Of a stretch of DNA of 64,000 nucleotides, positions 11,205-52,783 are shown in pieces; position 1 is the stretch's first letter, and the number at the start of each line of letters is the position of its first letter. Under the pieces are notes generated by a model. That model worked only from the letters and a program-made list of their open reading frames with translations, searched no databases and was not told the origin of the DNA. This stretch comes from Octopus vulgaris (taxonomy: Eukaryota). The stretch lies in assembly GCA_951406725.2 (NCBI GenBank), contig OX597838.1, positions 10,974,001-11,038,000 of the forward strand. The letters are read 5' to 3'. The position numbers and the translations under genes are program-made.

Positions 11205-11395
11205 TTCGCCATGATAGATTGCTAGCCACTACACATACTTTATTTTCTCTCCTTGTTTCTTTCTGTGTTCCTTTCTGTGGAAGAGCATAGGCTCGAAATG
11301 TTAAAGACTTTTTCACTTCCCAAGTGTTATACTAATATATCTGTTTGTTGTCTACCCACCAGTCTTCTTCTTTTGTTTTTTTCTGAATTCACCTG
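11205..11395 (+). mobile_element. Short Penelope-derived/retrozyme-like element with degenerate hammerhead motif (11271-11306)
   Basis: CTTT-CTGTGGA-A-GAGC(ATAG)GCTC-GAAA-TGTT-AAAG; flanked by (TA)n. Confidence 0.55.
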
Positions 11396-11443
<48 letters not shown>

Positions 11444-12428
11444 ACATACACACATGCACATACAACAGATTTCATTCACTGACAAGGCTTTGGTCGACCC
11501 AAGGACATGTATAAGACACTTGCCCAAGGTGCTGCACAATGGAACTGAACCTGGAACCACATGGTTGGGAAGCAAGTTCCTTACCACACAGCCATGCTGT
11601 GACTATAACAAAGCAAAATAAAAAAAAAATATCTTTAAAAAATCCCTGTCACATTTTTATTGATTGAGAGTCAGATTACATCACCTCAATGTCAATTACA
11701 TCATCAAAACATTTCCTTGTATTCTTTATATATTTAAGATTTATCAAAACATTAAAAAAATTTTTTTTCAATTCTATTCCTGCCATCAGGTGTAAATTGA
11801 TCTCTCGATAGACAATAGATTTGAAACTTGATGAAATTCTTTCAATTGAATGTTTTGTCTGGATAAAGCCAGGCTTTATCAATGAAGACACACTGAAGCA
11901 ACGGAGCTCTAACAATCAATAAATAGCGCCTGCTTTTATACCTCAAAGTCTCAAGTTAACTTCATTAAATTTAAATATTCCAACCAAGTAAAAAAAATCA
12001 AAACAAAAACAACACATTAATGGTTGCTTTTAATTGAAGAATTTCATTATCATTAGACAAAGTTGCAACATGCATCTACTTCATGTTTCAATTCATCCAT
12101 TCTTGTAGAATCTACTTTCATATGGTGCTAATAGGTTTTTCTGGAAGCAAGGGTTACAGTATGAGAACTCCAATAATGGTCTGTACTTTAGAACATCTCT
12201 CTCTCTCTCTCTCTTTCTCCACATGCATACAACACCCTCCTCCTACACATCATCATCCTTTAACATCTGTTTATCCATGCTGCCATGGGTTTGACAGTTT
12301 GACCAGAGCCAGTAAGCCTGATTTAACCAATTTCTACTGCTGGATGTCTTCCTAATGTGAACCACTTTACAGTATTTGTTGAGTGCTTTTAGTCAAGGCT
12401 ATGGCATGTTAAATATATATATATATAT

Positions 12429-12546
12429 ATATGAATAAAAAAATGGAGTTAACGCAGGTGTAATCAAATATTTTTACTTTCGAAACATGTGTCGAAAGTA
12501 AAAATATTTGATTACACCTGTGTTAACTCCATTTTTTAATTCATAT
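12429..12546. repeat. Fold-back hairpin, 55-bp arms, centred on CGAAACATGTGTCG
   Basis: 12429-12483 vs 12492-12546, one G-T pair and one mismatch; part of an AT-rich element between (TA)n tracts (12429-12693). Confidence 0.95.
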
Positions 12547-12691
12547 TATTCAAAATATTCAACGTAAACACGAAGTTTCTACCTTTATAAACAAGGAGTT
12601 ACAACACCTTTACTTGTGAGATTTTTGCTGCCCTGGTAACTATTTATTTATTTTTTCAGTGTTAATTGTTAACGAGGTAAAAATACACTCA

Positions 12692-12721
<30 letters not shown>

Positions 12722-12728
<7 letters not shown>

Positions 12729-12973
12729 TAAAAAACACCATCCGAGCATGGCCGTTCGCCAGCCTCGTCTGGCACCTGTGTCGGTGGCACATAAAAAGCA
12801 CCCACTACACTCACAGAGTGGTTGGCGTTAGGAAGGGCATCCAGCTGTAGAAACACCACCAGATCTGACTGGCCTGGTGCAGCCTTCGGGCTTCCCAGAC
12901 CCCAGTTGAACCGTCCAACCCATGCTAGCATGGAAAGCGAACGTTAAATGATGATGATGATGATGATGATGAT
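12722..12973 (+). mobile_element. Family C retroelement
   Basis: Internal units plus RTE-like tail and (GAT)n. Confidence 0.85.
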
Positions 12974-13137
12974 ATACGTGTATATTTAGGGCTAAAAACC
13001 ACTATGTGGACAGCCATATGCTAGAAGATAACATATGATCTAACTACAAAGAAAGAATGTTCTCCAAATTGTATGATCTTTTTCTAGCATATGGCTGTCC
13101 ACATAGTTGTTTTTTATCCCTAAATAAACACATGTAT
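12974..13137. repeat. Inverted repeat, ~55-bp arms, ~55-nt spacer
   Basis: tatttagggctaaaaaccactatgtggacagccatatgctagaa vs ttctagcatatggctgtccacatagttgttttttatccctaaata. Confidence 0.9.
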
Positions 13138-13322
13138 TGAAATTTTCTCTGATTTTTCAGATTTTTTATATGCTAGGCAACTGGTTTTAAATTGATATTA
13201 ATTAAATTAATATTCAATTTATCTCACTCATTATTTAAATGTATATATATATATATGGCGGTGCCCCAGCATGGCCACAGCTTGTGAGCTGAAACTAGAT
13301 GAAATAAAAAAAAAAAAAAAAT

Positions 13323-13510
13323 ATGTACCGTTGGCGATTTTTTTTCCCTCTGTCTTCCCTTCCATGGATCTTTCCTTCTCCTATGTTTCCGATGAAGAGC
13401 TCCGCTCGAAACGTTAAACCCTCCTTCTTTCCTTCTTTCCTGTGCGTCCAATAATACTACATTTGTTACACGTTCTCGCGTTGTGTTTTTTTGTGCTTCC
13501 ATGTTTGGAT

Positions 13511-13515
<5 letters not shown>
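13323..13515 (+). mobile_element. Short Penelope-derived/retrozyme-like element with hammerhead motif (13385-13419, U4>C)
   Basis: GTTT-CCGATGA-A-GAGC(TCC)GCTC-GAAA-CGTT-AAAC; homologous to 52483-52676; ends in (TA)n. Confidence 0.65.
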
Positions 13516-13560
<45 letters not shown>

Positions 13561-13685
13561 TAAATTAGAGACAAAACCACTATTAGGCAAATCAAACAAT
13601 GAAAAACTTAAGCCAATACATAAGATTATTTAATTTATATTATTTAGATATATAACAAAATTATTAAAAGAATATAATTAATATC

Positions 13686-13751
13686 ACACTACGATCGTTT
13701 CATGGCTGTTAATTTCTTCAAATTTTTGAGTCACAGTCATTCATCAGGTGT
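13686..13751 (-). ncRNA. Minimal type-I hammerhead ribozyme, intact core, inside an AT-rich element (~13556-13822) flanked by (TA)n
   Basis: Minus strand reads ACAC-CUGAUGA-AUGACUGU(23 nt)ACAGCCAU-GAAA-CGAUCG-UA-GUGU: helix I 4 bp, helix II 7/8 bp, palindromic helix III ACGAUCGU. Confidence 0.75.
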
Positions 13752-14078
13752 TTTAAATATTTATCTTGGCGAGGTTTAAACAATTTTTCCCTGTAAGTTT
13801 GGATTTATTCCCTAATATTTATTATATATATATACATATATATCCATTAGTTTAAAATGTAGAGCAATCTTCAGCTGCATAAAAATATAGGTATTGGTTG
13901 ACCTGGGGCTATAGTAGACACTTGTCCAAGGTGCCATGCAGTGGGACTGAACCTGAAACCACATGGTTGCAGAGTGAGCTTCTTAACCACACAGCCATGC
14001 CCGTGCTTATGTATTCGTTTTAATTTACCTTCTTTCTGTTTTTTTAGTGAAAGCTTGCTGTGTGTGTGTGTGTGTATG

Positions 14079-14116
<38 letters not shown>

Positions 14117-14562
14117 CGTGCGTGTGTATGCGTGCGTGTGCACGTTGGGGGTGATACCGAAGAATAAACTACTGGAATGCTATCTGAAAATATTGATTAT
14201 TATCAAATAGTCTTAAAGTTTATTGAGAGAGAAGACTGAAGAATAAAAAATAAATGAATTATGAAAAAAATATCTAAAAAAAAAATAAAAAAGTAAAAAT
14301 AAATAAAAGTAAAAAATAAAATAGAAAAAATAAATATAAAAAATAAAAAACCAAAGATAAAAACCCCAAAAAAAGGGGAAGAATAAAACTAAAACTATCA
14401 TCCACACATCTCATAAAACAGAACATGGATCATATTACAACTGCACTGTAGAAAGCATCCGGAAAATGCTTTAATGTGCCGCCACCACCACCACCACTAC
14501 TACACAGCTTTTATCTCCCTCCACCACCATCTCTCCCATCTTCATTCTCTTACACACACACA

Positions 14563-14599
<37 letters not shown>

Positions 14600-15284
14600 C
14601 ATACATGTAGTGTCCCTTTTCCCTTTTCTTTTTTTTCGTTGATGGTTGATAATAAAAATGATTTTTAGTTATCTTCTCTGTTTAATGTCATTATCTTCCC
14701 CCCCACCACCACCACCAGCACCATCACAAAATATAGGCCACCCCACAGGCCCGACAACTTCCCCAACATTTGTCACCCTTTACCAGATATTTAAAACAAG
14801 CAAACAAACAAACACCACCACCACCATCAACAACGACAACAACCATCCTTTCTACTATAGACACAAGGCCTGAAATTTTCGGGAGAATGAGATAATCGAT
14901 TATGTTGACCCCCCCCCCAGTACTTCGCTGGTGCTTATTTTATCGACCCCTGAAAGAAAGAAAGGCAAAGTTGACCTCGGCGGAATTTGAACTCAGAATG
15001 TGTGTGCATGCGTGTGTGTGTTTCTGACTTGGTATTGCGTAACAGTTGTAGATAAGCATCGCTATGAAGCTAGTGACGATGTTCATTTGCAGTTTTCTAC
15101 AAAAACATGTCTGGCCATGAGGAGGCATTATTTTTGCTTGGGAATAGAGGAGGTTTTACGACAGAAAAGGTGTCTAACCATAAAAAAACAAAAAAACAAA
15201 GAAACCCCTACCAGTTTACTTCAATGAATTCCATCTGATGTACGAGGACAGAGGTCATTAGAACCATCTTACATGATAGTCTTT

Positions 15285-15622
15285 TATTCTTTTACTTCTT
15301 CCAGTCCTTAGACTGTGGCCAGAATTTTAGTCAGAATGAATTGACCTCACTACTTTTTAAAAAAAACTTTCAACTTATTTTATCAGTCTCTTTTGCTGAA
15401 CAGCTAGGTTATAGGGACACAAACATACACACATGCATACACACAAACACATTTATATACAACAGGCTTCTTTCAGTTTCCATCTACCAAATCCACTCAC
15501 AGGGTTTTGGTCAGCCCAAGGCTATAGTAGAAGACACTTGCCCAAGGTGCCATGCTGTGGGACTGAACCCAGAACCATGAGGTTGGGAAGCAAGCTCCTT
15601 ACCACACAGCCACTCCTACACC
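15285..15622 (-). mobile_element. SINE family A, degenerate
   Basis: ctaccaaatccactcac...gaagacacttgcccaaggtgcc...accacacagccactcct. Confidence 0.8.
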
Positions 15623-15737
15623 TATATATATATATATATATATATATATGCATACTGTGGTTTGGGATTCTATTTCACTGCTTGGGTTGGACTGACCAAT
15701 AGGAAATTTAGTTGACTGAAACTCTGTGTGTGTATGG

Positions 15738-15779
<42 letters not shown>

Positions 15780-16888
15780 CCATGTATCCTTCTACTGACA
15801 CCGTTTAAGCAAAAACATCAACCAAGAGTGTTTTGCTTTCTGGATGCTCCAAAGAATAGTGACCAAAAAATTTCTTTTATGTGGGCTGCTGATATATATT
15901 GCTTTCAAATTTTGGCACAAGGCCAGAAATTTCAGGGGCCAACAATTTCAATGTAAGTCAATTCCATTGACCCCAGCGCTCAAATGGTACTTCTTTTATC
16001 GAACCTGAAAGGATGAAAGACAAAGTTGACCATAATGGAATTTCAACTTGGAACACAAAGACAGATGAAATGCTGCAAAGCCTTTTTGCCCAGTGTGCTA
16101 ATGATTCTACCAGCTTGCTGCCTAAGAGGCTGAAAATATTCTAGGAGCTAAGAAATGTCAGGTTTTCATCACAGAATGGGGGCAAGTTTTACCACAACCA
16201 ACATCAGTGAATGGACTGGAAAACTCAAATTCCCCCTAAAATGTCACGGTGTCACATGTTGAATCATCTGGAGGTCTGACATCCTGTGTTGGTGACAACA
16301 TTGAAACGAGTTAACAGTATGGTTCTGTGAAAACAGACAACCGATTACTGATTAAATGGGAAATAATATGCAAATTAATCATGGTTCTGTTGATAAAATC
16401 ATTCATGCAGGAGTTGGCTTTAATCAAATTTATTCAAAGATGGAACTCAACAAAACACACAGAACAGCATAAAGAAAATTATTATTTTGACTACTGGCTC
16501 ACAAATCCATGCCAGCATGGAGAATGGTCATTAAAAGAGGATGTTTCAGTCATTGTACTGTGGTCATGCTGGGGCATTTGCCATGAAGCGTTAAGTAGAA
16601 CAAACTGGCTCCATTACTTATTTTGAAGTCTGGGACTGATTCTATTAACCAAACCGCTAAGTTACAGGGATGTAAACTAACCAACACCATTTAAGAGATC
16701 GTGGTGGTGGTGGTGGACAAACACAGAGACACACATATGCCTACACACATGCAGACATACATATATACATATAGACACATATATTCATACACACATACAC
16801 AATATATATATATACACAGACACACTCACATATACACACACATAGACACACACACAAACACACTAATACATATATATATATATATATA

Positions 16889-17195
16889 TCTCTCTAGATA
16901 TAAACGGCAGTTTGTCTGTGTGTGTTTCTGTGTGTCTGTTAGGTTGTACCCTCACCCTGACCACGGCTTTCAACCGATTCTGATGAAACTTGACACACAC
17001 ACATAGCCCAATGTCATAATTCAAAACTAACGCAGCGAAAATTTTGAAAAGTTCCCCAGTTCTGAAAAATCGATAATAATCGACATGGGGTCGAGAATCA
17101 GAAACACTAACCACAGACTGTGGAATACGCAACTCGACCTTTTAACTATTAAATTTAGTATCTATTCTTCACCATTTTTTGCTAATTAATTTTAT
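16889..17195 (+). mobile_element. Non-autonomous Helitron-like element, 5' part
   Basis: TC...TATAAA start, GT-rich microsatellite, then ccacggctttcaaccgattctgatgaaacttg, the layout typical of Lep1/DINE-1-like non-autonomous Helitrons; 3' CTAG hairpin not seen. Confidence 0.5.
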
Positions 17196-17198
17196 AGT

Positions 17199-17236
<38 letters not shown>

Positions 17237-17420
17237 GAGCAGGCTTTTTTCAGTTTCAGTCTACCAAATCGACTCACAAGACTTTGGTTGACCTTAGCCT
17301 ATAGAAGACACTTGCCGAAGGTGCTGCGAAGTTAGACAAACCCCAAAAGCCATGTGGTTTAATAAGCCAACTTCTTACCACAGCCAATCCTAAAAACAAG
17401 CAATACTATCATTTTAAATC

Positions 17421-17680
17421 ATGAAGGCATGTGATGTAGTGGTTACAGTATTCAACCATGAGTTCAATTCCCTGTGAAGTGTTGTGTCCTTGAGCAAGAC
17501 ACTTCATTTCACATTGCTCCACTCCACTCAGCTGGCAACAATGAGTCGTACCTGTACTCGAAAGGGCCAACCTTGACACACTGTGTCATGCTGAATCTCT
17601 CTGAGAACTACATTAAGGGCACATGGGTCTGTGGAGTGCTCAGTCACATACACATTAATTTTACGAGCAGGCTGTGTTCT
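17421..17680 (+). mobile_element. SINE with CORE-like head and family E tail
   Basis: gtgtccttgagcaagacactt (CORE-like), then gagaactacattaaggg...cgagcaggctgt as in 21904-22270. Confidence 0.7.
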
Positions 17681-18195
17681 TCTGGTTATAAACCATGGAT
17701 ACATTACAAACCAGAGAGTAAATGCTAGAACATGGAGAGGGAACATCCACAAGTGTCCATCATGGGAAAGTTAATAATTCAACAAGTAGCAGGGAAAGTG
17801 GTGCTGAGAAGGTTTTAGCTGAAGAAATTGACCCCAGAACTAATTCTTTGTAAGCTTAGTATTTTTTCTATCAGTATCTTTTGCCGAACCACTAAGTTAC
17901 AGAGATGTAAGCATGCCAACATCGGTTGTCAAGTAATGGTGGAGGAACAAACACAGACACAAAGACATACACACACAAATATATATATATATATATACAT
18001 ATATATACGGTGGCACGTAAAAAACACCATCCGAGCATGGCCGTTCGCCAGCCTCGTCTGGCACCTGTCTTCGGGCTTCCCAGACCCCAATTGAAACGTC
18101 CAACCCATGCTAGCATGGAAAGCGGACATTAAACGATGATGATGATGATGATGATGATATATATATATATATATATATACATACATACATACATA

Positions 18196-18235
<40 letters not shown>

Positions 18236-19214
18236 GGGCATCTTTCAGTTTCCATCTACTAGATCCTGTCACGAAGCTTTGGTTAGCTCAACCCTATAGT
18301 AGAAGACACTTGCCCAAGGTGCCATGCAGTCGGACCGAACCTGGATCCATGTGGTTGGGAAGCAAGCTTCTTACCACACAGCTATAAAAAAAAAAATTGA
18401 TATGTTTGTACTTTTAAAATCTTTATACATCATTATCATTTAATGTCTGTTTTCCATGCAGGCTCCAACTGTTTCTATGGCTGGATGCCCTTCCTAATGC
18501 CAACCAATTTTACAAAGTGTACTGGGCACTTTTCATGTGGTACTGGCATGGGTGCTTTTACATGGCACCAGAACCAGTGCTTTGTACGTGGCACCAGCAC
18601 GAGTGCTTAGTACGCCTCCCTGACACCAGTACTGCTCATGTTGCACCAGCACAAGTGCCTTTTGTTTGGCACTGGTGCAATGGTATGTACTTTTTATGTG
18701 GCACCAGCAGGCACACTTTCCCCATGGCACCAACACAAGTGCTTTTTACATGGCACCAGCAATTGTGGTTGCAATAATTTTTTTTTTTAAGAGCAATACC
18801 AGAAAAAGAAAGGAAAAGAAACAAAAAAGAAAATGGATAACTGAATGTGAAATTTCTTGGGGGTAGGGTCGGCAAACAGAAACTGGAACAGCCATGGTTG
18901 ATGTGATAACAGCAACTTAATTGACATTTCAAGCACAAACCTGCATCACAGTGACCAAGAGGTAACAATGCCTAGTGATGCATACACAACTACTTTTCCC
19001 CACCAATGGAGAGAATAATATATGTACATTGCAAATAATTAATGACTTTTGCGAGCAAGTGTATATCGGCACTCCATCAGTTACAACAACGAGGGTTAAG
19101 GTTGCCAGGAATCAAACTCATGACCTTGCAGTTGTGAGTCAAATACCCTAACCACTAAGCCATATGCCTTCACTCGAGTGTGTATATATATATATATATA
19201 TAGGGCGACATGCA

Positions 19215-19745
19215 ATGCTTGAGGAGACCTATTGAGTCAAGTACATCAACATCAAAACCAAATAGAAATTGTATTTGTGGTCCCTGTACCGGTGGCATGT
19301 AAAAAGCACCATGCAAAAATGGTTGATCCCAGCCCCATTGCCCTGACTAGCTCCTGTGCTGGTGGCATGTAAAAATCACTATCCTAACGTGGTCGATGCC
19401 AGCCCCCTTGCCCCGACTGGCTTTCGTGCTGGTGGCACGTAAAAAGCACCATCCGAATGTGGCTGATGCCAGCGCTGTCTTGACTGGCTCCCGTGCTGGT
19501 GGCATGTAATAAGCATCATCCAATCATGGTCGATGCCAGACCCATCTGGCCTCTGTGCCAGTGGCACGTAAAAAGCACCCACTACACTCTTGGAGTGGTT
19601 GGTATTAGTAAGGGTATCCATTTGTAGAAACACTGCCAGATCAGGCTGGAGCCTGGTGCAGCCTCCTGGCTTCCCAGACCCCAGTTGAACCATCCAACCC
19701 ATGCCAGCATGGAAATCGGACGTACGATGAGGATGATGATGATGA
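19215..19745 (+). mobile_element. Family C retroelement, 5 internal tandem units
   Basis: Units at ~19284, 19354, 19425, 19492, 19554; shares leader cttgaggagacct.ttgagtcaagtac with the copy at 985. Confidence 0.85.
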
Positions 19746-22284: not shown

Positions 22285-23040
22285 TTACATCAATGCTGCG
22301 TCCTCGACCAGCACGTTTCTTGATTTCTTTAATGCTCTTTTAAATGTATCCACAGACCTTTCTGCTTGCCCGTTAGATCTTGGGTGATATAAAATAGTAA
22401 TATGTTCAATTGAGTACATCTTGCAAAAATTCTTAAATTCATTCGCCATGAATTGTGTACCATTATCGGAGACTATGGTATCCGGGACACGATGCCTAGC
22501 AAAAAGTTTGTGTAGAAATATGACCGTTACTGTGGATGTAGGTTTGCTACATTTACACATTTCTGGCCATAGAAAGGGCATCCAGCTGTAGAAACACTGC
22601 CAGATCTGACTGGGCCTGGTGCAGCCATCGGGCTTCTCAGACCCCAGTTGAACCGTCCAACCCATGCTAGCATGGAAAGCGGACGTTAAACGATGATGAT
22701 GATGATGATGATCTATCACTATTAGATAATATGATCGGTTTAATGGTCCTGCAAAGTCTATGTGTATTCTAGACCATGGAATATTGGTTTGGGGCCAAGG
22801 CTGAAATTTTATAGGTGGTGACTTTGCTGCAAGAGCAGGATTTTACCAACTTCTCAATATCTAGATCCATTTTTGGCCAGTAAACATAACTCCTAATAAG
22901 TGACTTCATTCTAGAAATTCCTGGATGACCTGTGTGGAATTCCTTTAGCATTCGACCTTGTAGTAAGGTAGGCATTATAACCCCCTATGCATACATAAGC
23001 ACTTTATCACATATCGAATACAAATTCAAAACCGTGTTAC
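22285..23040 (-). mobile_element. Gypsy (Mag/K02A2.6-like) LTR retrotransposon integrase relic, frameshifted and interrupted
   Basis: Zn domain LKEFHTGHPGISRMKSLIRSYVYWPKMDLDIEKLVKSC; core PWSRIHIDFAGP...VSDNGTQF...YHPRSNGQAER (D,D,E); family C fragment inserted at 22569-22711. Confidence 0.9.
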
Positions 23041-33485: not shown

Positions 33486-33606
33486 CTGATTTGGGGGCAT
33501 TGATAGCTGCTTGCCTTTGATCTCGTAACATTGTCAACTCTATGTTCAATTCCTCTTGTTTCAGTTCTTGCATCCGGTATTTGTGCTCCAGTTGTCCTAG
33601 TTGTGA
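33486..33606 (-). CDS. 121-nt coding exon, coiled-coil protein (SQLGQLEHKYRMQELKQEELNIELTMLRDQRQAAINAPKS)
   Basis: Acceptor ttttctaatttcAG, donor CAG/GTAAGT, open phase-0 frame with heptad-like L/E/Q/K composition; gene not recognised. Confidence 0.75.
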
Positions 33607-34371: not shown

Positions 34372-34654
34372 GACACACACACACACACATGCATATGAAT
34401 GCAAGCACACACACACTGATATTCAAGTATATTATACAACTATTATACATCTCTGGGGAAAAGAAGAAATTTGAACATTTGAATTTTTGGTGACCTAACA
34501 ATGGTTAAAAAGAATAGCAGAGAATATTATTTCCTCCGTTATTAGGTCAAAAATTTCAGTCACTATCCAGTATTAAAGACAAACAGTTGATTTAAAAGAT
34601 GTAATTATAAAAAGAATGTTTTATAGTCATAAGTACGTTATACATGTGTGTGTG

Positions 34655-34695
34655 TCATGCTGATGACATCAACTGAGGCAGAAACATGTCCATGA
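34655..34695 (+). ncRNA. Minimal type-I hammerhead ribozyme candidate, damaged helix II
   Basis: UCAUG-CUGAUGA-caucaacugaggca-GAAA-CAUG-UC-CAUGA: 5-bp helix I, palindromic ACAUGU helix III, GUC triplet. Confidence 0.55.
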
Positions 34696-36930
34696 AATGT
34701 TTCATTATCTCTAGACAATAAACCCTTAACAGCATGTCAGTTTTGAAGAATTCTTAAATCTTGAGATTATATCTATCCCGTTCCCAAGTAGAGCAGGCTA
34801 TTATGGCTGTTTAGTAATTATGATACATCCTCTAGGGGTGAAGATAATTTCAATAATTCAAGAATTTATGTTGTATAGTATTTGATATGCTTATATTTGT
34901 CTGTGTGGTTCAAATACATGCCAATAGCCACTTTGACATACATCTCTTGGTTTGTTTTTGTTCAATAGGATAAAGTGGGACTGAAGATAACTAAGGATCA
35001 AGATATCTGGTGCCTTGCTGTACTCAGGAAGACTTGTCCACCACAGCAGAATTGACACCGGTGTTGGTGCTACATAAAAATAGCACCCAGTACTCTCTGT
35101 GGATTGGTTAGCATAAGGAGGCGCATCCAGCAGCTCTAGAAACCACGCCAGAATAGACAATGGAGCCTGGCATGACCCCTAGCTTTACCAGCACCAGCCA
35201 GACTGTCCAACTCATGCCAGCATGGAAAACAGGTGTTAATTAAAAAAAAAAAAAAAAATCTCAGTTCATCTCCAATATCTTTTAGTGAGTCAGTGAAATG
35301 CTTGAATGGTCACACACTGTTGCCCAAGTCCTTCTTCCTTCCTCTCCACATTCTCTGTCTGTCTGTCTGTCTCTGTCCTTGTCTCTCCCTCCATCTGTCT
35401 GTCTGTCTGTCTCTGTTCTTGTCTCTCCCTCCATCTCTCTGTCTCTCTTTCTAACAGTAAAGATGGTTCAACTTGATTTCTTCTTTATTTTTTATCAATT
35501 TTCTTTTTGTGTGAGCTTACTTACTTTCTCTCCCACTCCTCCCCACTTTGATGTTAAAAGGTGCAAAAAAAAAAAAAAAAAGGCCGACCCCCCGCTCCCA
35601 CTTCCCCAACTACCTCACCTGACATTCATTAGCATCTTCTGCCCCCACTTTTTTTCTCATTACAATATCTTCCACCTTCCTTCTCTTTCATAAGTTTCTT
35701 CATTCCAGTGTCTCACAGGTAGACATCACCCCCACCCACCACCCCACCACCACCACCACAATTCCATAATGATATTAAAAAATTGCTTTGATGAAGCTTT
35801 CTGTTCTTCTCTCTCTCTCTCTCTCCCTCCCTTCCAATCTCTTTTTCCTTCACTGTCAGGTTCTCTCTCTCTCTCCCTCCTTCCCTCCCTCTCCTGCCAC
35901 TATTCCTCACTTTGATGTCCACAAAATACATGCATTTTCATGTTTGCATTCACAAAGTTGTCATTAAGATAACAGCGGGAGGCGGCGGCGGAGGGCAAAA
36001 AAAAAAAAAAAAAAAAAAAGAACACCGACCGTCAATGTGCACAACTTTTATTTAACCAGAAACATTGATGGAGCAATGTTAAGAAAAACGAGACAGTAAA
36101 AAAAAAAGAGAAGAAAAAGAAAAAAAAAAGGAAAAAAAAAAACAAAAACAAATGAAAAAACAAACAAACAAACACACAGACAACAACAAAAGAAAAATGA
36201 AGTAATACTCAAAAAAAAAAAAATAAATAAACTACTTCTCTACATAACTTATAATTCTTGCAGTGAAAAGATGTCTTGGAGTAAAATAACTCTAGATCTT
36301 AACTCTAAAATAATTATTTCTTACATGAAAGCTGAAGATATTTCTTTCTCAGAAACAAATGGGAAGCAACAATATTCATACCTAGTTTTTTTTTTTTTTG
36401 TTTTATATTTGCTTGTTTCTGTTCTCCTTGTATTAATAACACCAATCAATCAACAGAGAAAAACCTATGGAAACCAGAGGTGCACAGCGAGAGATGTAAT
36501 GTCTCTCTCCCTCTCTTTAGATCTTCTCCAGTCGTCAGACAACTTCAAGAGTTTTTCCTCCCCTCTTCAATCCATCGCTCTGCTCAACCACCTTCCTTCA
36601 TAGTCTGCCGTTAACTCTTTCACCAAGATTTTTGACCAGGTATGATTATTTTTGCAAGATTAATGGTTATCTAAGTATGCGATGAATTTATAAAAAGACA
36701 GGTTTTGTATAATAGGTGCCTGCATGGCTCTGTGGTTAGGAAGATTGTTTCCTAACCACATGATTTCAAGTTCAGGCCCACTTTGGGGCACCTTGAGTAA
36801 ATGTCTCCTACTTTAGCTCCAGTCTGACCAAAACCCTAAGAGTGGATTTTGTAGACAGAAACTGAAAGAAGTCCACCAAATATGGGTGTGTATCTATCTG
36901 CAGCCAGATGTCACAACTATAACTGTTTAT

Positions 36931-37545: not shown

Positions 37546-38194
37546 GAGTGAAGGATTTTTTGTGGAGGATCTGTTGTTGTCCCTCCATTGTAAGGGATCC
37601 AACCTATGTAAATTTCAGTCAATGAGGATCTCCATCATAAGATGTAGTATCTATACACACACATCTAAACACACACACATGTATATATGTACACACACAT
37701 ACACATGCATATGTTTATGTCACATTGTCTTGATATCAGGTTATGGTTATAAATGTGTCACACTCATAAAAACAATGTCCAGTTTTTTAGGAAAATATAT
37801 CAAGCCACAAGGAAATATTACGTTGCTTGCAAACAGGTGAAGGTTGGCAACAGGAAGAGCATCAAGTTGTAGAAAATCTGCCTCAACACATTTCTATTTG
37901 AGTAATGCAATCATGGTAAAGAGAACATTAAATCAATGATGATGCGGATGAGATGAGGTTTTAAGAAAACCAACCCTAGCACATTGATATCAAACTTTGG
38001 CAAAAGGCCAGCAATTTCAGGAGAGTATGTTAAGTCGATTACCTTCACCCCAGTGCACAACTGGTGCTTATTATATTCACTATGAAAAGATGAAAGACAA
38101 AGAAAACCTCAGCAGAATTCAAACTCAAAATGTAAAGATGGATGAAGACAGACCACTCTTGTAAGCCATAATAATAATAATAATAATAATAATA

Positions 38195-38345
38195 CATTAT
38201 TTACAATTAATGGATATTTTGTCCTCATCTTACGTGTTGCTAACACATTTCGGCTGATACACCCTCCAGACTTCATCAGGTGTCTTGGGGGAAATTTTGA
38301 ACCTGGGTTTTTTTTATTCCTAAGGTATTTTTCGATGTTTTTGTT
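38195..38345 (-). mobile_element. Short Penelope-derived element with degenerate hammerhead (38243-38283)
   Basis: Minus strand ACAC-CTGATGA-A-GTCTG(gagggtgtat)CAGCC-GAAA-T-GTGT; helix III deleted; abuts (AAT)n. Confidence 0.5.
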
Positions 38346-42815: not shown

Positions 42816-42891
<76 letters not shown>

Positions 42892-43275
42892 TTGAAGGGA
42901 GAGAAACAAAGATAGGGAAGAAGCGATTTTGCTTTATGCTGGCACCGATTCCGTTTCCTTTGATATCCACTGCCTGCAATGTTTTAAAACACTGTTATAT
43001 GGCTGCAAAGGTGAGATGATGAGATTAGGAATTTTGTTGAACAACTGTTGCTGCCATGACCCTCTGGTTGATAGGAAAGTGTGGTGAGGTGGTGGTGGTG
43101 GTGGTGGTGGTGTATGGTGGCATGGAGTTGCTGGTCACAATGATACTTAGCTCGAAAAACATTTTTTAAAATTTTATATATAAACACATACATACATTAA
43201 TAAACATATATATACATACACATATAAACATACACACATATGTACATCTTTATATATACATATCTCTCTCTCTCT

Positions 43276-43315
<40 letters not shown>

Positions 43316-43619
43316 ATACATACGTGTGTGTGCTGATATATATATGTATATATATAAACATATATACATATGTGTGCTGACATTATATATATATATATAT
43401 ATACATACATATATTTACATATACATGCATATATAAACACACATTCCTAGGTGTGGTGACATGGATGTGTTGGTTACAATGATACTAAGCACAAGACATT
43501 TTTTCTATTACATATCTATGAACACAAACATACATACACATCTTTACCCTGAGCTATGGTCTCCTAGACTATTTACACACATATAAGATATATATATGTG
43601 CAAATGCATATGTATGTGC

Positions 43620-43653
<34 letters not shown>

Positions 43654-43825
43654 GTTTATGTATCTACCATTGACCTGTTTATGAATCACACTGTTTATGT
43701 ATAGTTAGAAATACAGTAGTTGACGGTTTGGAATTATGTAGGAATCTGGAGGGGAGGTCAGTGGAGCAGAATAGTAACAGAGAAAATAGTATTTATCATA
43801 TACACCATGTGATGATATACATAGT

Positions 43826-44346
43826 GTGAAGGCACAAGACTCAAATGGTTAGAGTGTTAGGCTCACAATCATGAGGTAGTGAGTTCAATTCCTGGACCAG
43901 GCAGTGTGTTGTGTTCTTGAGCAAGACACTTCATTTCACCTTGCTCCAGATCGCTCACCTGTAGAATTGAATTGCAGCATCACTGGTGCCAAGGTTGATC
44001 GGTCTTTGCCAGTGGTATGGAGAGTGGAGGCTGGTTTGCATGGGTGACTGCTGGTCTTCCGTAAACAACCATGCCCAGGGTTGTACCTCGGAGGAGAACT
44101 CTCTAGGTGCAATCTCATGGTCATTCATGACCAGGCTCCAGATCGCTCACCTGTAGAATTGAATTGCAGCATCACTGGTGCCAAGGTGGATCGGTCTTTG
44201 CCAATGGTATGGAGAGTGGAGGCTGGTTTGCATGGGTGACTGCTGGTCTTCCGTAAACAACCATGCCCAGGGTTGTACCTCGGAGGGGAACTCTCTAGGT
44301 GCAATCTCATGGTCATTCATGACCAGATGGGGTCTTTACCCTTTAT
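43826..44346 (+). mobile_element. CORE-like tRNA SINE with internal 192-bp tandem duplication
   Basis: Head plus gtgttcttgagcaagacactt; units 43943-44134 and 44135-44326; unduplicated relative at 57738-58090 (minus). Confidence 0.85.
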
Positions 44347-44374
44347 CCTGATATGAAGGAAGGAAGCTTTAGAC

Positions 44375-44611
44375 CAGTGATTCTCAGCCATTTTTGGCCC
44401 CTATGAATCCCTTTGATTCCTAATTTATTCTACTGGACCCTACACATTTGGTGTATATTTTTAAAGAATCTTACTGTATTTCCATAATTGAATATTATTA
44501 GGAATTGTATACATAAACTGAAATAATTTGGTTATTGTAGAATTATGTGCAATTTATTGCACATAAATTTTAACAACAAAATCTTGTGTGGACCCCAGTT
44601 AAGAACCACTG
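44375..44611 (+). mobile_element. hAT MITE, different family
   Basis: TIRs cagtgattctcagc / gttaagaaccactg; imperfect TSD ctttagac / ctttggat. Confidence 0.7.
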
Positions 44612-44809
44612 CTTTGGATGGAGGGGGAGGCAAGGAAGGATGGGGATGTGTATGGAGGAAGAGGGTAAGAAAGAAAGATAGGGAAGGAGGTGAAAGAGAG
44701 GTGAAGGGGTTGAATAAAAAGGGAGAAAGAAAGATAGAAGAGAAGAAAGGAAGACAATGGAAATGAAGAGAGAGGGAGAAAAATGGGAGAAGAAAAAAAC
44801 AAGAATAGA

Positions 44810-44849
<40 letters not shown>

Positions 44850-45516
44850 AAGAGATAGATAGATATATAGATAGATAGAGAGAGAGAGAAAGAGATAGAT
44901 AGATATATAGATAGATAGATAGAGAGAGAGGTGAGAGATATCAAGGTATTGTCCAGCATTTTGATGATATAAGAGGGATATTTGTTTGAAGTAAGTTTGG
45001 ACAATAAAACAGCTGATTGCTTCAAAGAATAACAATGGACCCTCCTCCACCCCCCAACACTGGTGCAAGCCCAAATGAGGCAACCATTACAGAACCTACT
45101 GAACCAGCTCGTTTTTTTTGTTTTTTTTAAAAATATTTATTTTATGTTTGTGACAGTTGTTCATCATCAGAGAAGCGATGCAATGTTGGTAGCAGAACAA
45201 GGCTGGTCAAGGTATGTTCTGGCTGCTATAGATATTGTGCTAACACAGTCCATTTTGCCTGGCATGCTAACAATTCTGCCAGTTCATTGCCTTAATAATA
45301 ATAATCCTTTCTACTGGAAGCACAAGGCTTCAAATTTGGGGGAAGGGATTAAGTCAATTACATCGACCCCAGTGCATAACTGATACTTGTTTAAACGACC
45401 CCAAAAGGATGACAGGTAAAGTCGACCCTGGCAGAATTTGAACTCAGAACGTAACGGCATACGAAATACTACTAAGCATTTTGCCTGGTGTGCTAACAAA
45501 TAATAATAATGATAGT

Positions 45517-45895
45517 AGAGGCGCAATGGCCCAGTGGTTAGGGCAGCGGACTCGCGGTCATAGGATCGCGGTTTCGATTCCCAGACCGGGCGTTGTGAGT
45601 GTTTGAGCGAAAACACCTAAAGCTCCACGAGGCTCCGGCAGTGATGGTGGTGATCCCTGCTGTACTCTTTCACCACAACTTTCTCTCACTCTTACTTCCT
45701 GTTTCTGTTGTACCTGTATTTCAAGGGGCCGGCCTTGTCACTCTCTGTGTCACGCTGAATATCCCCGAGAACTATGTTAAGGGTACACGCGTCTGTGGAA
45801 TGCTCAGCCACTTACACGTTAATTTCACGAGCAGGCTGTTCTGTTGATTCGGATCAACCGGAACCCTCATCGTCGTAACCGATGGAGTGCTTCCA
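45517..45895 (+). mobile_element. SINE family E, full length
   Basis: Near-identical to 21904-22270; inserted in (AAT)n. Confidence 0.9.
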
Positions 45896-46469
45896 ATAAT
45901 AATGATAATAATTATAACAAAGCTTCCTTATTTTCTCAAACCTGGAAGAATGAAAACTGCATCCAGAGAGATTCCAATTCAAAGGAGTAAAATATGAACT
46001 AGAACAGGCAAACTGAATCAGGGTTAACAAGATCTATCAAACAAGATTAAATGTAACCCCATTAAATAAAAATCATACAGATAAATCCATCATCACCTCA
46101 TCTTCCACTCCCTGCCTCAATGAAAAATTTGCACAAAGCTTAAATGCAATTCAATTATATGACCCCAAATCCCCTCCACTATCTTGTATCGTAATGGCCA
46201 GTTAATGGCATCTGGAAGAAAAAAAAAATTCATCAAGAAAAAAAAAAGAACTTTTACCTTTAGTGTTTCAATTGTGTCGTTATGTTGATGCTCTATCACA
46301 TTTTTAGCCTGTAAAGGAAACCAAATGGAAGATATAAATATTTAAGTGGAATACCAATTAATCAATCAAAAATAATGAAAAACGGCCTCGCTTTTTTTTT
46401 TCATCTTTATTCTTTTTCAATAAAAATAATCCTCGCGAGAGCATTTGTGATAGCTTTAAAGCAAACGTT

Positions 46470-47221
46470 TTCCAGGTAGGGATACAAAGGTTGGAAAAGG
46501 GAGTAATTTATAGTCTGCAGGGTTTTTTTTTTTTTTTTATATTTTAAGAAGCAAATTTATTGGTGGTTAATGTTTTTTTTTAGGGCCTATCAACCTGAGG
46601 TTGCATATTATTCCATTAGTGATAAAATGTGTCTAAATAACAAATTTCCAATGGCAGTGTAAAGCAGGTAACATAGGGAGTGACAGACAATCTGCTGTAG
46701 ACATCAGGAATATTGTAAAGGCTAAGATGGGCATAGAGGGAGAGGAAGAGGGATGATTATAAGTGAAAAGGCCTTTGGAATCTGTAGTCTTGTAAGCACA
46801 CACACATACACACACACACACACACAAGGATGCTGAAAAGTTCCAGGTAGGGATACAAAGGTTGGAAAAGGGAGTAATTTATAGTCTGTGGTTTTTTTTT
46901 ATTTTTTATATTTTAAGAAGCAAATTTATTGGTGGTTAATGTCTTTTTTTAGGGCCTATCAACCTAAGGTTGCATATTATTCCATTAGTGATAAAATGTG
47001 TCTAAATAACAAATTTCCAATGGCAGTGTAAAGTGGGTAAAATAGGGAGTGAAAGACAATCTGCTGTAGACATCAGGAATATTGTAAAGGCTAAGATGGG
47101 CATAGAGGGAGAGGAAGAGGAAGAGGGATGATTATAAGTGAAAAGGCCATTGAAATCTGTAGTCTTGTAAGCACACACACGTACACACACACACACACAA
47201 AGGATGCTGAAAAGTTCCAGG
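46470..47221. repeat. Tandem duplication, ~371-374-bp unit
   Basis: Units 46470-46840 and 46841-47214; TTCCAGG at all three boundaries. Confidence 0.95.
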
Positions 47222-47418
47222 CTTTAAGGGTATTGCGAAGGGCTTGGTTGGAGGCCCAACATTCTCAGTTCTTTTACAGGGCTTGGAAAAATTGAAGGAC
47301 TGCTGCAATGAGTCTGTGAATCTGAGAGGGGAATATGTTGGATAAAATCATAATTAACTGATCATCATATATTTTTTTTTATACCCAAACCCAGGAACTT
47401 TTCAGCATCCCCTCATGT
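47197..47418. mobile_element. mariner-like MITE
   Basis: TIRs ggatgctgaaaagttccagg / ccaggaacttttcagcatcc. Confidence 0.7.
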
Positions 47419-48744
47419 GTATGAGTGTGTATCACCGTGACCGACCAGGCTATCAGATGTTGCTATACATCACTGGTCACAATGCACTTTGCATTGTTTT
47501 AGCTTTCAAATGACGCCACCCCACTGGCTAAGCATGCAGGCCAACAGAAGAAATATATATATATATATATATATGTTTGCAGAAGAATGGCATCTTGTCC
47601 AGACAAGGAGATATCTCACAGAGATTTTGTAACCAAGTACAAGGTTTCAAGTGGTGAAACATCTACATAAAATAGACCAATATGTTAAAAATGTCAACAA
47701 ACTAGAAAAAAAAATCTGAGGAATAGAAAAATTTCAGTAACTTTCAAACAATTGCAATAGAATCGTGTCAGTAGGCAACATATTTTGAAAATTCAAGAAA
47801 TAAATGAAAAATGAATTTCACCCTTTAACCATGAAATTGAATTTCATGGTTATTCCAGAAATATTGTTAAATGTCTACCAAAAATTGGAATTGGCATTTT
47901 CTTACAAGTCGTATTGCTTCAATAAACTTGGCATATCTCAACGAAAAATAGCTTCAGTCATGGCATTCCACAGCGAAAGATAGATTGGTACGTTAAACTG
48001 ATTTCTGCAGTTAAGAGTAATGAGGTTTTGAGTGGCCATATCTGATTTCCGCAATAAAAGGGTTAAGAGATTTTGTTTATTCTTAAACGGTTAAAAATGC
48101 GCTTCTGCAATGTAATTTAAAGATGGACAATTATGAAAGCTTTCAAACTCAAGTTGCTTCTGCATCATAAATCAACTTTTCAACATTGACAATCATATCT
48201 CTATACACTCCATCACGCTCTGTTATTTTAACATTAAAATTCAAAGGATGTTTGATCACTAAACAGAAATGATGTAATTTTAATTATTAATAATTTAATT
48301 TTTGATATCACATCTGATTACTATCTTAACTGTTCTTGTAACCTAGCAGTTTGAAAGTAGAGAATGACAAACCAAGTATCAGTTTGGAATGAATATCAAG
48401 ATCGACAATCCTTGATAGTGTTGTCCTACCAGAGCCACAATCTAATGACTAAAACCAGTAAAAGAATAACTCTCAAGGCTTTGGTCAGCCTTGGGCTATA
48501 GTAGAAGACACTTGCTCAAGGTGCCAAGCAGTGGGACTGAGTCTGAAGCCATGTTACGAAGTAAACTTTTTAAGCACACAGTCCATAGCCATACTTGCAC
48601 ATACAATGTGTGTGTGTGTGTGTCTGAGGGAGATAGAATGAGTGAATGTATTTTTCTGTGTTAATGTTTACATTGGCTTTTTCAAAAAACGTTCTGTTGT
48701 TAATGTCTCATAATTAGCACTTTAAAAACATTAAGAGAATAAGA

Positions 48745-49150
48745 AGGCAACGAGCTGGCAGAAACGTTAGCATGCCGGGCGAAGTTCTTAGCGGTATTTC
48801 ATCTGCCATTACGTTCTGAGTTCAAATTCCGCCGAGGTCGACTTTGCCTTTTATTCTTTCGGGGTCAATAAATTAAGTACCAGTTATGCACTGGTGTGTG
48901 TATGTATCTTCTGGTCTTGATACAGCATGACAGTTGTAAATGGTTATCACTGTCATAGAAGCAGTGTCAGTCATTTCCAATATTCTGCGAAAACATTTCT
49001 GACCATGACGAAATATCACCTTGCTTGGAAACAGGTGAGAGTGAGTGACAGGAAGGGCACCTGGCCATAGAAAATCGACTTAATTGACTTAATCTGTTTG
49101 CCCTTGTTTGTCCACTCTATGTTTAGCCCCTTGTGGGCAATAAAGAAATA
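48745..49150 (+). mobile_element. SINE family B with 15-bp TSD and foreign internal segment
   Basis: agaataagaaggcaa at 48736 and 49151; 48896-49075 derives from another SINE tail. Confidence 0.8.
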
Positions 49151-50367
49151 AGAATAAGAAGGCAAATGAAATAAGTAATGGGGTTATTACAAGCATAACA
49201 AATCCTTTGAAACCCCATGCCCCAGCATGGCGACAATCCAATGACTAAATCCAGTAGCCCCCCCCCCCCTGCCACCAAAAACAAAACCCCCCGAGGTGTT
49301 AGCATGGTGAAAATGATGTTAGTGATGGTGGTGGTGGTTGGGGGAGTGAGAGAAGACTTCCAAGATTATTTTGACCAATAGAATCAAAGCTTGAAATTTA
49401 TCAGTTGTATCGAGTGCAAACCACCCGATAGTATGAGATGGTAATCTATTTTAACACTTTCACTGCCAGTCACTTAGAGTAATTGTCTGACTGGTATTAA
49501 GAGAGTGAATCGGTAGAATCTTTTTTTTTTTTTATAAAATCAAAGGAAACTTCATGAGGATAAGTAATATTACTACAGCTTTTACAGCCAGTATATATAG
49601 ATTGTTATCACACATGAAAATGATATTGGATGATATTGGGTGCAACATAAAGCATGTTAGCATTTTGTGATTTAAAGTTGTTGGGGTTTTTTTTTTTTTG
49701 GTTGTCTACTATTTTTATTTACAACTAAACCTTTTTGTTAACATGTTTCTATTGAAATATAATACCTTTTTTTTTTCAATTAATTTTGAAAATGATCTTT
49801 ATCCTTATTCTTTCATCTTCTACTTGTTACAGTTATTTGACTGCGACCATGCTGGAGCACTTCTCTAAAGGGATTTAGTTGAAATGAGTCAACCCTGGTA
49901 CTTACTTTTAATTTTAATATTCATTTCAAATTTTGGCATAAGGCCTGCAAGTTTGCTGGAGGGGTAAGTCAACTGCATCAACCCCAGTACTCAGCTGGTA
50001 CTTATTTTATTGACCCCAAAAGGATGAAAAGCAAAGTCAACCCCAGTGGCATTTGAACTCAGAATGTGAAGCTGGAAGAAATGCCACTGGTTTTCTGGTG
50101 TGGTAACCATTCTGCCAGCTCGTCGCCTTATTGCCCACTCTATTATTCCTCAGTTGAGTTCCAGACCACCTTTGCAATTTCGGCTGGTTATACTCGAGAT
50201 TGCTCCTATCTGGCCAGCCCCAAGGAAAAAACTAAGCTAAGAGCATTAGACTCCATGGAAGAAAGCAGCAAATGTACAAAAAAAAACAAGGACGCTAACC
50301 CCCCCCCCCCCGGAAAAATGTTATACAAATACAAATAACAGGACATAGCAACGGATGTCTTTCGACT

Positions 50368-50428
<61 letters not shown>

Positions 50429-50624
50429 TACACACACATATATAAATATAACATATATACATACACATACATATATACATATATACATACACATACATAT
50501 ATATATATACACATACATATATACATACACATACATATATATATACACATACATATATACATACACAAACATATAGATACACATACATATATATATATAT
50601 ATACACATACACACACACACATTC

Positions 50625-50656
<32 letters not shown>

Positions 50657-51172
50657 ACCAATATGAACTAAAAATGGCAGAGATCATGAACAGAGCAAAT
50701 GGAGATGCATCAAAATCTAAAGTGAAAACCTTTGTAATGAGAATATCTAAATATGAGTTTATCGAACAAACACATCGGTGGCAGTTTCAGTGTAGACAGG
50801 CTACAGGATAAAAATGGGTGCTTAGTGACCAACGCTGGTTCATGTCAACATTTGTTCAGCTTTAAGCGAGGGCATAAGGAGATATGTGCGCATTAGAAAT
50901 TTATGCACACGGTAAATCCAAAGTCAACACGAAATCTGCAGTGAAGCTATCCACAGCTCGATATAAACACATTTGTTTGACAGCTGGAGAGCAGTTATAT
51001 GATTGCAGAATAAGTTTTTTAAAACTCTGTAGAAAATAAATCCATTGGACTGAGTTAGCCATTAAGTAATGCAAACAAATTAGAAGCTACAACTGTTAGT
51101 AGTTTCTATGTAAGGCAACTATAAACAGCAACAGTGGGAACAAGTTTCTAGTTGGTTCTGTTAAAGAATATC

Positions 51173-51567
51173 TAGGGGCTAAACATAGAGGGGACAAACA
51201 AGGACAAACGGATCAAGTCGATTACATCGACCCCAGTGCGTAACTGGTACTTAATTTATCGACCCCGAAAGGATGAAAGGCAAAGTCGACCTCAGCGGAA
51301 TTTGAACTCAGAATGTAACAGCAGACGAAATACCTATTTCTTTACTACCCACAAGAGGCTAAACATAGAGGGGACAAACAAGGACAGACAAATGGATCAA
51401 GTCGATTACATCGACCCCAGTGCATAACTGGTACTTAATTTATCGACTCCGAAAGGATGAAAGGCAAAGTCGACCTCGGCGGTATTTGAACTCAGAATGT
51501 AACAGCAGATGAAATACGGCTACGCATTTCGCCCGGCGTGCTAACGGTTCTGCCAGCTCGCCACCTT
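51173..51567 (-). mobile_element. SINE family B dimer with 18-bp TSD
   Basis: gttctgttaaagaatatc at 51155-51172 and 51568-51585. Confidence 0.9.
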
Positions 51568-52156
51568 GTTCTGTTAAAGAATATCAAGATCATGCAGGTA
51601 ACCAATTTGTACAGTTAAGATTAATAACACTTACATCTTGAACACAAGATATATTGAGCCTGCTTGGTTACTATGTAGTATGTATGCTCTGCTGTGCAGC
51701 TAACAGTACCATGCTGGGTGCGGTTTTTAAATTTTATTTAAGATCTACTGATGATTGATGGGTAAAAATGGACACAGATGTATTAAAGTATTTAAGTATT
51801 AAGGGCATGTGGGTATTTTGAAAATACCTCATGGAGTGACAACTGTGCCCGCATAGTTATGAGCAGCCATGGCAAGGCATAGCATATGTTCAGCCACTCT
51901 ACCATGGATACGGTGAAGTCATGGCACTGAAGCATGGTAGATTGTGAAGAGGTAGCAGAAGAGCTCAACTGAACCACTGGTGCTTTTTACATTGATGCTG
52001 AGCGGGAGAATCCAAGAAGATCATTGGTCAAGATCAAGCTCTATCAAGAGAGTAACTGCAACACATCTATAGGGGAGGCGTCCATGGTTGTGTAGAAAGT
52101 CTTTGATTACAACTCAACTTTATCATGGCTGGCTTGGGCTATGTATATGTATATAT

Positions 52157-52460
52157 ATCACCGTGATCGACCAGGCTATCAGATGTTGTTACACATCGCT
52201 GGTCACAATGCGCTTCACATTGTTTTAGCCTTCAAATGACGCCACCCCGCTGGCTAAGCGAGCAGGCCAACAGAAGAAAGAGTGAGAGAAAGTTGTAGCG
52301 AATGAGTACAGTAGGGATCGCCACCATCCCCTGCCGGAGCCGCATTGAGCTTTAGGTGTTTACGCTCAATAAACACTCACAACGCCCGGTCTGGGAATCG
52401 AAACCGTGATCCTACTACTGCGAGTCCACTGCCCTAACCACTGGGCCATTGCGCCTCCAC
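52157..52460 (-). mobile_element. SINE with family E head and alternative tail
   Basis: Homologous to 34027-34340. Confidence 0.85.
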
Positions 52461-52482
52461 ATATGTGTATATATATATATAT

Positions 52483-52783
52483 TGACCGCGTGTGTACTGT
52501 TGACGATTTTTTTCCTCCGTCTTCCCTTCCTTGGATCTTTCCTTTTCCTATGTTTCTGACGAAGAGCTCCGCTCGAAACGTTAAATCCTCCTTCTTTCTT
52601 TCCTTTCGTGAGCATCCAATAACACTATGCTTGTTCCACGTCCTTGTGTTGTTGTGTTTTCATGTTTGGATTAACTTATATATATATATATAGTTAATCC
52701 AAACAAGAAAACACAAAAAAACACAACACGAGGACGTGGAACAAATATAGTATTATTGGACGCTCAGGAAAGAAGGAAAGAAG
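52483..52783 (+). mobile_element. Penelope-derived/retrozyme-like element (52483-52676) plus inverted partial copy (52692-52783) around (TA)n
   Basis: Homologous to 13323-13515; ...tttggattaact(TA)n agttaatccaaa... arranged tail-to-tail. Confidence 0.7.
52552..52586 (+). ncRNA. Minimal type-I hammerhead ribozyme motif, intact core
   Basis: GUUU-CUGACGA-A-GAGC(UCC)GCUC-GAAA-CG-UU-AAAU; palindromic ACGU helix III. Confidence 0.65.

Follow-up and report, generated by a model that had tools for sequence, protein, structure and literature searches.

Penelope-type hammerhead motifs in short dispersed repeat families and in intact Penelope-like elements of Octopus vulgaris

A stretch of 64,000 nucleotides from Octopus vulgaris (assembly GCA_951406725.2, contig OX597838.1, positions 10,974,001 to 11,038,000; the whole stretch is called the window below) contains six hammerhead-shaped motifs, each a single copy from one of five dispersed families of short non-coding repeats, named A, BF, C, D and E. 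An earlier note on this DNA had proposed that Penelope-type minimal hammerheads reside here in several non-autonomous dispersed families. This proposal is supported by the homology of A and BF to the pseudo-long terminal repeats (pLTRs) of Penelope-like elements (PLEs) and by the inverted pairs of PLE type formed by C and E. We consider it probable that all five families are copied in trans by Penelope proteins combining reverse transcriptase (RT) and GIY-YIG endonuclease, and that the hammerhead is weak and not rate-limiting. More tentatively, we suggest that intact, recently mobile PLEs may spread with an altered "invariant" core (A6U in one case; U4C plus a broken helix I in the other), their hammerheads being either protein-rescued catalysts or non-cutting RT handles, and that the same machinery may also carry a tRNA-headed short interspersed nuclear element (SINE). 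PLE minimal hammerheads and their short derivatives were already known; what appears to be new are the core variants fixed in intact PLEs and family E with its tRNA-like head, neither of which was noticed in the earlier note. A literature search that reached only a minority of subscription papers and none of the repeat databases found no paper describing A6U hammerheads in PLEs and no tRNA-headed element of PLE type.

Hammerhead motifs and repeat families of the window

The motifs are labeled by the position of their core: A 11275+, B 13389+, C 13747-, D 34660+, E 38279-, and F 52556+. Each of the six coordinates in the earlier note proved to mark a hammerhead-shaped motif, at the first base of its helix I. 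The CUGANGA core assigned to them is found in C, D, E, and F, but not in A, which reads CUGUGGA (A6U), nor in B, which reads CCGAUGA (U4C); both exchanges are also present in the intact parental PLEs described below. The claim of about five sequence contexts can be confirmed, except that B and F belong to one family (BF; 83% identity) and that A is homologous to BF.

The family A element (11205..11393, + strand, approximately 190 bp) is followed by (TA)n and shows 72-74% identity to the pLTR of PLE-2 over about 195 columns. Its minimal hammerhead (11271..11306, +) has the lineage-wide A6U exchange, a helix I of CUUU/AAAG, and a putative cut after position 11302. Copy B (13322..13515, +), likewise followed by (TA)n, is 75% identical to the pLTR of PLE-1 over 162 columns; its hammerhead (13385..13419, +) combines U4C with a helix I of GUUU/AAAC and the palindrome ACGU. 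Copy F (52483..52676, +), a full-length BF element, is flanked by (TA)n tracts, has 71% identity to the PLE-1 pLTR, and contains a hammerhead (52552..52586, +) with the canonical core CUGACGA, a helix I of GUUU/AAAU, and a GUU triplet. A partial inverted BF copy (52693..52783, -), comprising the 3' half without hammerhead, lies tail-to-tail with F across (TA)n. The 3' end of the family C element (13560..13781, -, approximately 222 bp) shares its (TA)n tract with copy B; the type I hammerhead of C (13686..13751, -) has a canonical core, a helix I of ACAC/GUGU, a long helix II, the palindromic helix III ACGAUCGU, and a GUA triplet, and is the best candidate for activity among the motifs of the window. 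The family D element (34650..34884, +) is 5'-truncated here and old, other copies being 71-82% identical to it; its decayed hammerhead (34655..34695, +) has an intact core and helix I and an unpaired helix II. Family E is represented by a tail without the tRNA-like head (38192..38337, -), which ends at a (TAT)n tract; in its defective hammerhead (38243..38283, -) CUGAUGA is kept and a deletion of three nucleotides removes the cleavage triplet.

A strict descriptor of the minimal hammerhead had two hits in the window (C and F), compared with a mean of 0.05 and a maximum of 1 in 40 local dinucleotide shuffles. When one core change was allowed, five hits were obtained, consisting of four of the six motifs and 19992-, which is probably a chance match; the corresponding mean in 40 shuffles was 0.475, the maximum 2. 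In a genome sample of 71 other 10-kb stretches (710 kb, placed at round coordinates on 29 large contigs), 18 strict hits, seven of them from one tandem array, contrast with 0-1 in five shuffles, and 41 relaxed hits with 1-6. Thus, the comparison with shuffled sequence, by which the earlier note could have failed, gave counts far above expectation in both data sets. D fails the descriptor because helix II is unpaired, and E because a single base separates GAAA and helix I, which leaves no U16.1-H17. The set of helices I and II, GAAA, and U16.1-H17 is present in A, B, C, and F and in the consensuses of families D and E; it is incomplete in the window copies of D and E, which are decayed. The palindromic helix III reads ACGU in B, F, PLE-1, PLE-2, and the E consensus, ACGAUCGU in C, and ACAUGU in D, and has decayed to U-G at 15.2-16.2 in copy A. 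Counting the core changes of A and B, four of the six copies deviate, and the notion of six working ribozymes is not supported; the lone genomic copies of the window are probably inert and are to be regarded as ordinary repeats, for the most part without activity.

A first look at the 2.8-Gb genome provided at least 4967 candidates for A, 1906 for BF, 1253 for C, 3780 for E, and 23 for D. In the 710-kb sample, profile searches gave a total of 52 arms scoring 30 bits or more, distributed over 31 of the 71 stretches; 34 of these copies include the hammerhead (13 from BF, 10 from A, 8 from E, and 3 from C). This corresponds to one such copy per 21 kb, about half the density of roughly one per 10 kb proposed earlier, and extrapolates to about 1e5 copies. 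The identity of copies to the profile consensus is 73-96%. Sequence with matches in other fetched loci (designated by L numbers below) makes up approximately 56% of the window. Copies with a complete 3' end continue into a TA run in 13 of 14 cases for BF, 10 of 12 for C, 5 of 8 for A, and 0 of 3 for E, the background being 5.7% of random positions. Of the postulated link to adjoining microsatellites, a (TA)n bias is retained for A, BF, and C, and microsatellite targeting by D and E is not supported. Further unrelated hammerhead-shaped motifs with a long helix II and a palindromic helix III occur at L143 (199- and 658-), L198 (4440+), L216 (7715-), L175 (9471-), L112, L051, and L284, which implies that there are more families than the five of the window.

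The intact elements PLE-1 and PLE-2 and their hammerhead cores

PLE-1 was met via the BF locus L026, which abuts a PLE. The full-length copy at L199 (about 6.3 kb) begins with a pLTR and an open reading frame (ORF), continues with a 3' region rich in CA, and closes with another pLTR and (TA)n; the hammerhead-bearing pLTRs at both ends are in direct orientation. Intact copies have a single ORF of 950 amino acids with RT motifs, a linker resembling a zinc finger (CX4CX2C), and C-terminal GIY-YIG/CCHH. The Pfam matches of the protein to RVT_1 and GIY-YIG are below the curated cut-offs, and a sequence search of the PDB gave no match; the Atlas placed it, with a value of 0.98, with RT/HTH_animal/GIY-YIG clusters. 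An identical endonuclease region of 146 amino acids was found in 105 of 150 scored loci (query included), and one tandem array has a period of about 6.2 kb; both findings indicate that the family is young. Assembled contigs across a PLE-1 junction revealed no joints, although contigs cannot show RNA ends. The second family, PLE-2, was found from L181, and its protein is 64-68% identical to that of PLE-1. Of eight fetched loci with long ORFs, seven carry all three marker motifs in the same reading frame, and five have a hammerhead at both ends. According to the linker criterion described in PMC8557442, both families would belong with Neptune or Nematis.

In PLE-2, U6 occurs in all 22 motifs detected at 30 loci (20 are exactly CUGUUGA; eight loci have no motif in range) and, as CUGUUGA, in 13 of 13 motifs at the eight long-ORF loci. 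The exchange extends to 76 of 78 copies of the wider A lineage. It is found in 22 of the 23 copies that were selected by neither the A nor the PLE-2 query; N7 in these 23 is G in 4, C in 5, A in 9, and U in 5. In a tree of 23 rows computed with positions 4 and 6 blanked, the nine A6U rows form one side of a branch with 100/100 support. The core of PLE-1 is CCGACGA (U4C) in 27 of 30 motifs, and helix I contains a U-U mismatch in 29 of 30. Among independent BF copies, 7 of 18 show U4C as well, without forming a single branch; as U4 and C4 can be interchanged in BF by CpG decay, this state is revertible. Both A6U and the combination of U4C with the helix I mismatch are predicted to weaken self-cleavage: single mutants of the CUGA turn are of low activity according to PMC9901934, and U4C in a viroid (PMC3088659) and A6C in a phage (PMC7151607) are reported as rare natural variants with reduced, though not abolished, activity.

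The remaining core is conserved. In seven lineage consensuses, positions 3, 5, 8, and 9, GAA, A15.1, and U16.1 are invariant, whereas the flanks differ widely; any of the four bases occurs at N7, and U, A, or C at N17. When the search put no constraint on positions 4 and 6, only the combinations U/A (47), U/U (33), C/A (6), and U/C (1) were found. In 14 homologous motifs the helices pair at 90%, compared with 17-44% if the strands are slid. An apparent covariation in helix I of family D (CATG/CATG versus CGTG/CACG) was rejected, as it is explained by CpG decay. A block resembling UUCCUGAGCG lies about 20-40 nucleotides downstream of 11306, 13419, and 52586, and also at L253 and L328; a similar block, conserved in each of the seven lineage consensuses of A, BF, and the PLEs, is able to base-pair with the hammerhead's GCUC-GAA strand. 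The block may constitute an inhibitory fold or a protein-binding site.

Insertion structure, proposed mobilization in trans, and alternatives

Family C has a canonical core and a perfect palindrome, and 12 head-to-head pairs were found among 48 arms. In the old family D, the consensus restores helix II. The consensus of E is canonical as well, the deletion of three nucleotides being confined to a subset of copies. Its 109 arms contain 31 head-to-head pairs but no tail-to-tail and no same-strand ones; 22 of the 31 pairs have unequal 3' ends, one long and one short, and in many of them head fragments are present on both arms. The pairs of C and E match the signature of an inverted copy plus tail described for PLEs in PMC8557442.

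The head of E lies upstream of 27 of the 50 tails with intact start and, outside the query loci, of four out of eight. It also occurs alone: of 16 head matches away from the query loci, eight are connected to a tail. The head contains motifs resembling an A-box and a B-box, judged by the consensus of these boxes, and is followed by (AAT)n. A tRNA call by ARAGORN required a lowered threshold, and there is no tRNA match in Rfam. Family E appears to be a tRNA-like head joined to a hammerhead tail of PLE type. A diverged element at L136 (1036-1204) and L306 has the 3' tail of E and a different hammerhead, and lacks the tRNA-like head; it is a possible decayed parent lineage of E. L298 and L306 have a longer upstream sequence in common with an E-type tail, without a match to PLE protein.

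The mobilization in trans suggested by homology and insertion structure could proceed as follows. The PLE protein would bind an RNA containing a pLTR-like unit, nick AT-rich or (TA)n DNA, and start reverse transcription at a fixed site about 90-130 nucleotides downstream of the hammerhead. A fixed start would give rise to the fixed 3' ends on (TA)n and, in the case of C and E, also to the inverted 5'-truncated second arm. The hammerhead would likely be a weak cutter, dependent on dimers or protein and kept in the master lineages; if it is not rate-limiting, the continued spread of A6U and U4C lineages would follow. PLE minimal hammerheads are indeed reported to cut weakly and only as dimers, not as monomers (PMC4209133), and that of an anole PLE to cut only with protein, cutting being dispensable for insertion in vitro (PMC11167929). 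PMC8557442 calls the role of the hammerhead in PLEs unclear.

Several observations weigh against this account. Most loci were chosen by similarity to the window copies. With a divergence of 25-29% from BF and A, PLE-1 and PLE-2 are relatives and not direct templates of these families. Autonomous PLEs with homologous pLTRs, as anticipated in the earlier note, exist for A and BF; for C, D, and E, no parent was found by tblastn with PLE-1 over the fetched loci or via a related element. A and BF have few head-to-head pairs, namely 2 in 97 arms and 2 in 104, respectively. The helix differences, for which a reading as covariation is not supported, lie mostly between unrelated families, and the 14 homologous motifs contain a single double-sided change, a C-G/G-C swap in helix I within A/BF, and none in helix II. 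Finally, minimum-energy folds of monomers or dimers gave the full hammerhead for none of the six window copies, only the C monomer coming near; such an outcome is expected if, as reported, motifs of this kind depend on dimers or protein, and it is not positive evidence.

Under the most far-reaching alternative, the motifs would be chance matches in AT-rich repeat DNA. The descriptor was drawn up after the motifs had been seen, and Rfam reported no hammerhead at gathering score, nor was there one in the 150 matches listed out of 236 by E-value. Given the counts relative to shuffled sequence, the few combinations admitted at the free positions 4 and 6, and the location of motifs in PLE pLTRs, where the literature puts such hammerheads, this explanation can be practically dismissed. 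It is also very improbable that the families are non-LTR retrozymes spreading via small circular RNAs from tandem arrays. Their size range and the type I hammerheads would fit, and a true tandem array with canonical core exists elsewhere in the genome, but A, C, and E have no same-strand tandem neighbors, the three same-strand rows of BF come from two sites, at one of which a BF copy lies next to a PLE pLTR, and the element ends do not fall at the cleavage site. The earlier label "retrozyme-like" consequently does not apply to the window families, among which there are no head-to-tail arrays. The array mentioned, which is unrelated (L139, 2097-4768), consists of 359-bp units that are 98-99% identical and retrozyme-like; it contains five hammerheads on the + strand and two on the - strand in an inverted arm, with canonical core and a helix I of 6 bp.

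Two further alternatives leave a connection to PLEs in place. A and BF, perhaps also C and D, might be 5'-truncated 3' ends of extinct autonomous PLE subfamilies instead of independent elements. PLE insertions are commonly 5'-truncated, and PMC4209133 explains single motifs in this way; moreover, the arms of A begin at scattered profile positions (2-106), and short copies of PLE-2 type exist (L184, L187). We nevertheless regard truncation as an improbable origin: in the 710-kb sample, 9 of 17 BF arms begin at profile position 1-3; with the tblastn cut-off applied, PLE coding sequence is reached from none of the 30 best A loci and from only one of the 30 best BF loci, namely L026, where a separate PLE-1 with its own pLTR lies beside the BF copy; and a PLE 3' end would not supply the tRNA-like head of E. 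Alternatively, the hammerhead of A, BF, PLE-1, and PLE-2 might no longer cut and persist only as a protein-binding or RT-positioning structure, which would be compatible with mobilization in trans. The fixation of A6U on one fully supported branch, the combination of U4C and a mismatched helix I in the youngest family, PLE-1, the low activity of CUGA-turn mutants, and the dispensability of cleavage in the anole system point in this direction. As catalysis would require, however, C3, G5, G8, A9, and the GAAA strand are invariant and N17 is never G in the lineage consensuses, and natural hammerheads with U4C or A6C keep some activity; we therefore think a complete loss of cutting unlikely. Copying by PLE proteins in trans, with a weak hammerhead, is the reading we prefer. 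If it is true that the machinery also carries family E, there would be a class of tRNA-headed SINEs partnered with a PLE and not with a long interspersed nuclear element.

Neighboring sequences and comparison with known systems

The window contains at least three further very abundant short interspersed families without hammerheads, each with many copies (390-793, 1037-1378, 3786-4103). An inverted repeat pair of 159 bp (1472-1630 and 2716-2874; 94% identity, 1.1 kb apart) encloses CUGAAGA motifs that failed the hammerhead descriptor. Local tandem duplications are found at 8584-9413, 43943-44326, and 46470-47221, with periods of 170, 192, and 369 bp. A Pfam search with 30 of the 172 candidate ORFs of the window detected integrase fragments only. 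A broken LTR-retroelement integrase fragment (Integrase_H2C2, rve; 22288-22984, -) is split by another repeat. An apparent internal exon of 121 nucleotides (33486-33606, -) has a good acceptor, a GTAAGT donor, and a coiled-coil-like peptide. The Atlas search gave no name for it, and the placement of the motifs in introns by the earlier note rests on this one apparent exon.

The motifs resemble the metazoan PLE hammerheads described by Cervera and De la Pena in 2014 (PMC4209133) in being of type I with a helix I of 4-5 bp, in having G10.1-C11.1, an extra base between 9 and 10.1, and a palindromic 15.2-16.2, and in their occurrence both in pLTRs and as many dispersed singles. They differ in the core, as the variant given there is U3-A8 and the present ones are A6U and U4C; in the shorter helix II of A and BF (4 bp); and in copy number, which is estimated at about 1e5 here and reported as 2,000-9,000 per genome there, the methods being different. 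With the Neptune and Nematis PLEs of PMC8557442, PLE-1 and PLE-2 share the C-terminal GIY-YIG, the CX2-5CxxC linker, CCHH, pLTRs, tandem and inverted insertions, a one-sided tail, and a microsatellite bias; the hammerheads reported for the former are canonical, whereas the cores of PLE-1 and PLE-2 are not. The non-autonomous PLE derivatives of MRC1 type in the same paper are comparable to the window families, being short and having the 3' end in common with a PLE. In the anole element Poseidon PAc (PMC11167929), the hammerhead likewise lies in a pLTR, the targets are AT-rich, and the tail stems from two start sites of reverse transcription. The PAc hammerhead, which is active, protein-assisted, and has C3 and G8, extends over the start of the ORF; the ORFs found here start farther downstream, by about 450 nucleotides (PLE-1) or more.

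For Octopus, a repeat annotation of 2026 lists recently active Penelope-like families, and its main text mentions neither hammerhead nor ribozyme nor retrozyme. Standard searches for CUGANGA miss core-variant families, for which reason published counts may be low. The genome offers a natural matched set of two intact elements with different core substitutions plus canonical relatives; PLE-1 and PLE-2 could reveal if A6U is compatible with a working core, if it is rescued by the protein, or if cutting was abandoned.

Animal non-LTR retrozymes (PMC7229834; bioRxiv 10.64898/2026.07.22.740005) are similarly short and non-coding, with a type I hammerhead and a relation to pLTRs, but by definition consist of tandem repeats containing two or more hammerheads. 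The window families are dispersed monomers or inverted pairs. Family E finds its counterpart in the hammerhead-bearing SINE-like elements of schistosomes, known as SM-alpha. As described in PMC6765202, a promoter-like head precedes the hammerhead there, as it does in E; what distinguishes E is the minimal hammerhead of PLE type, the internal (AAT)n, and the inverted insertions of PLE type.

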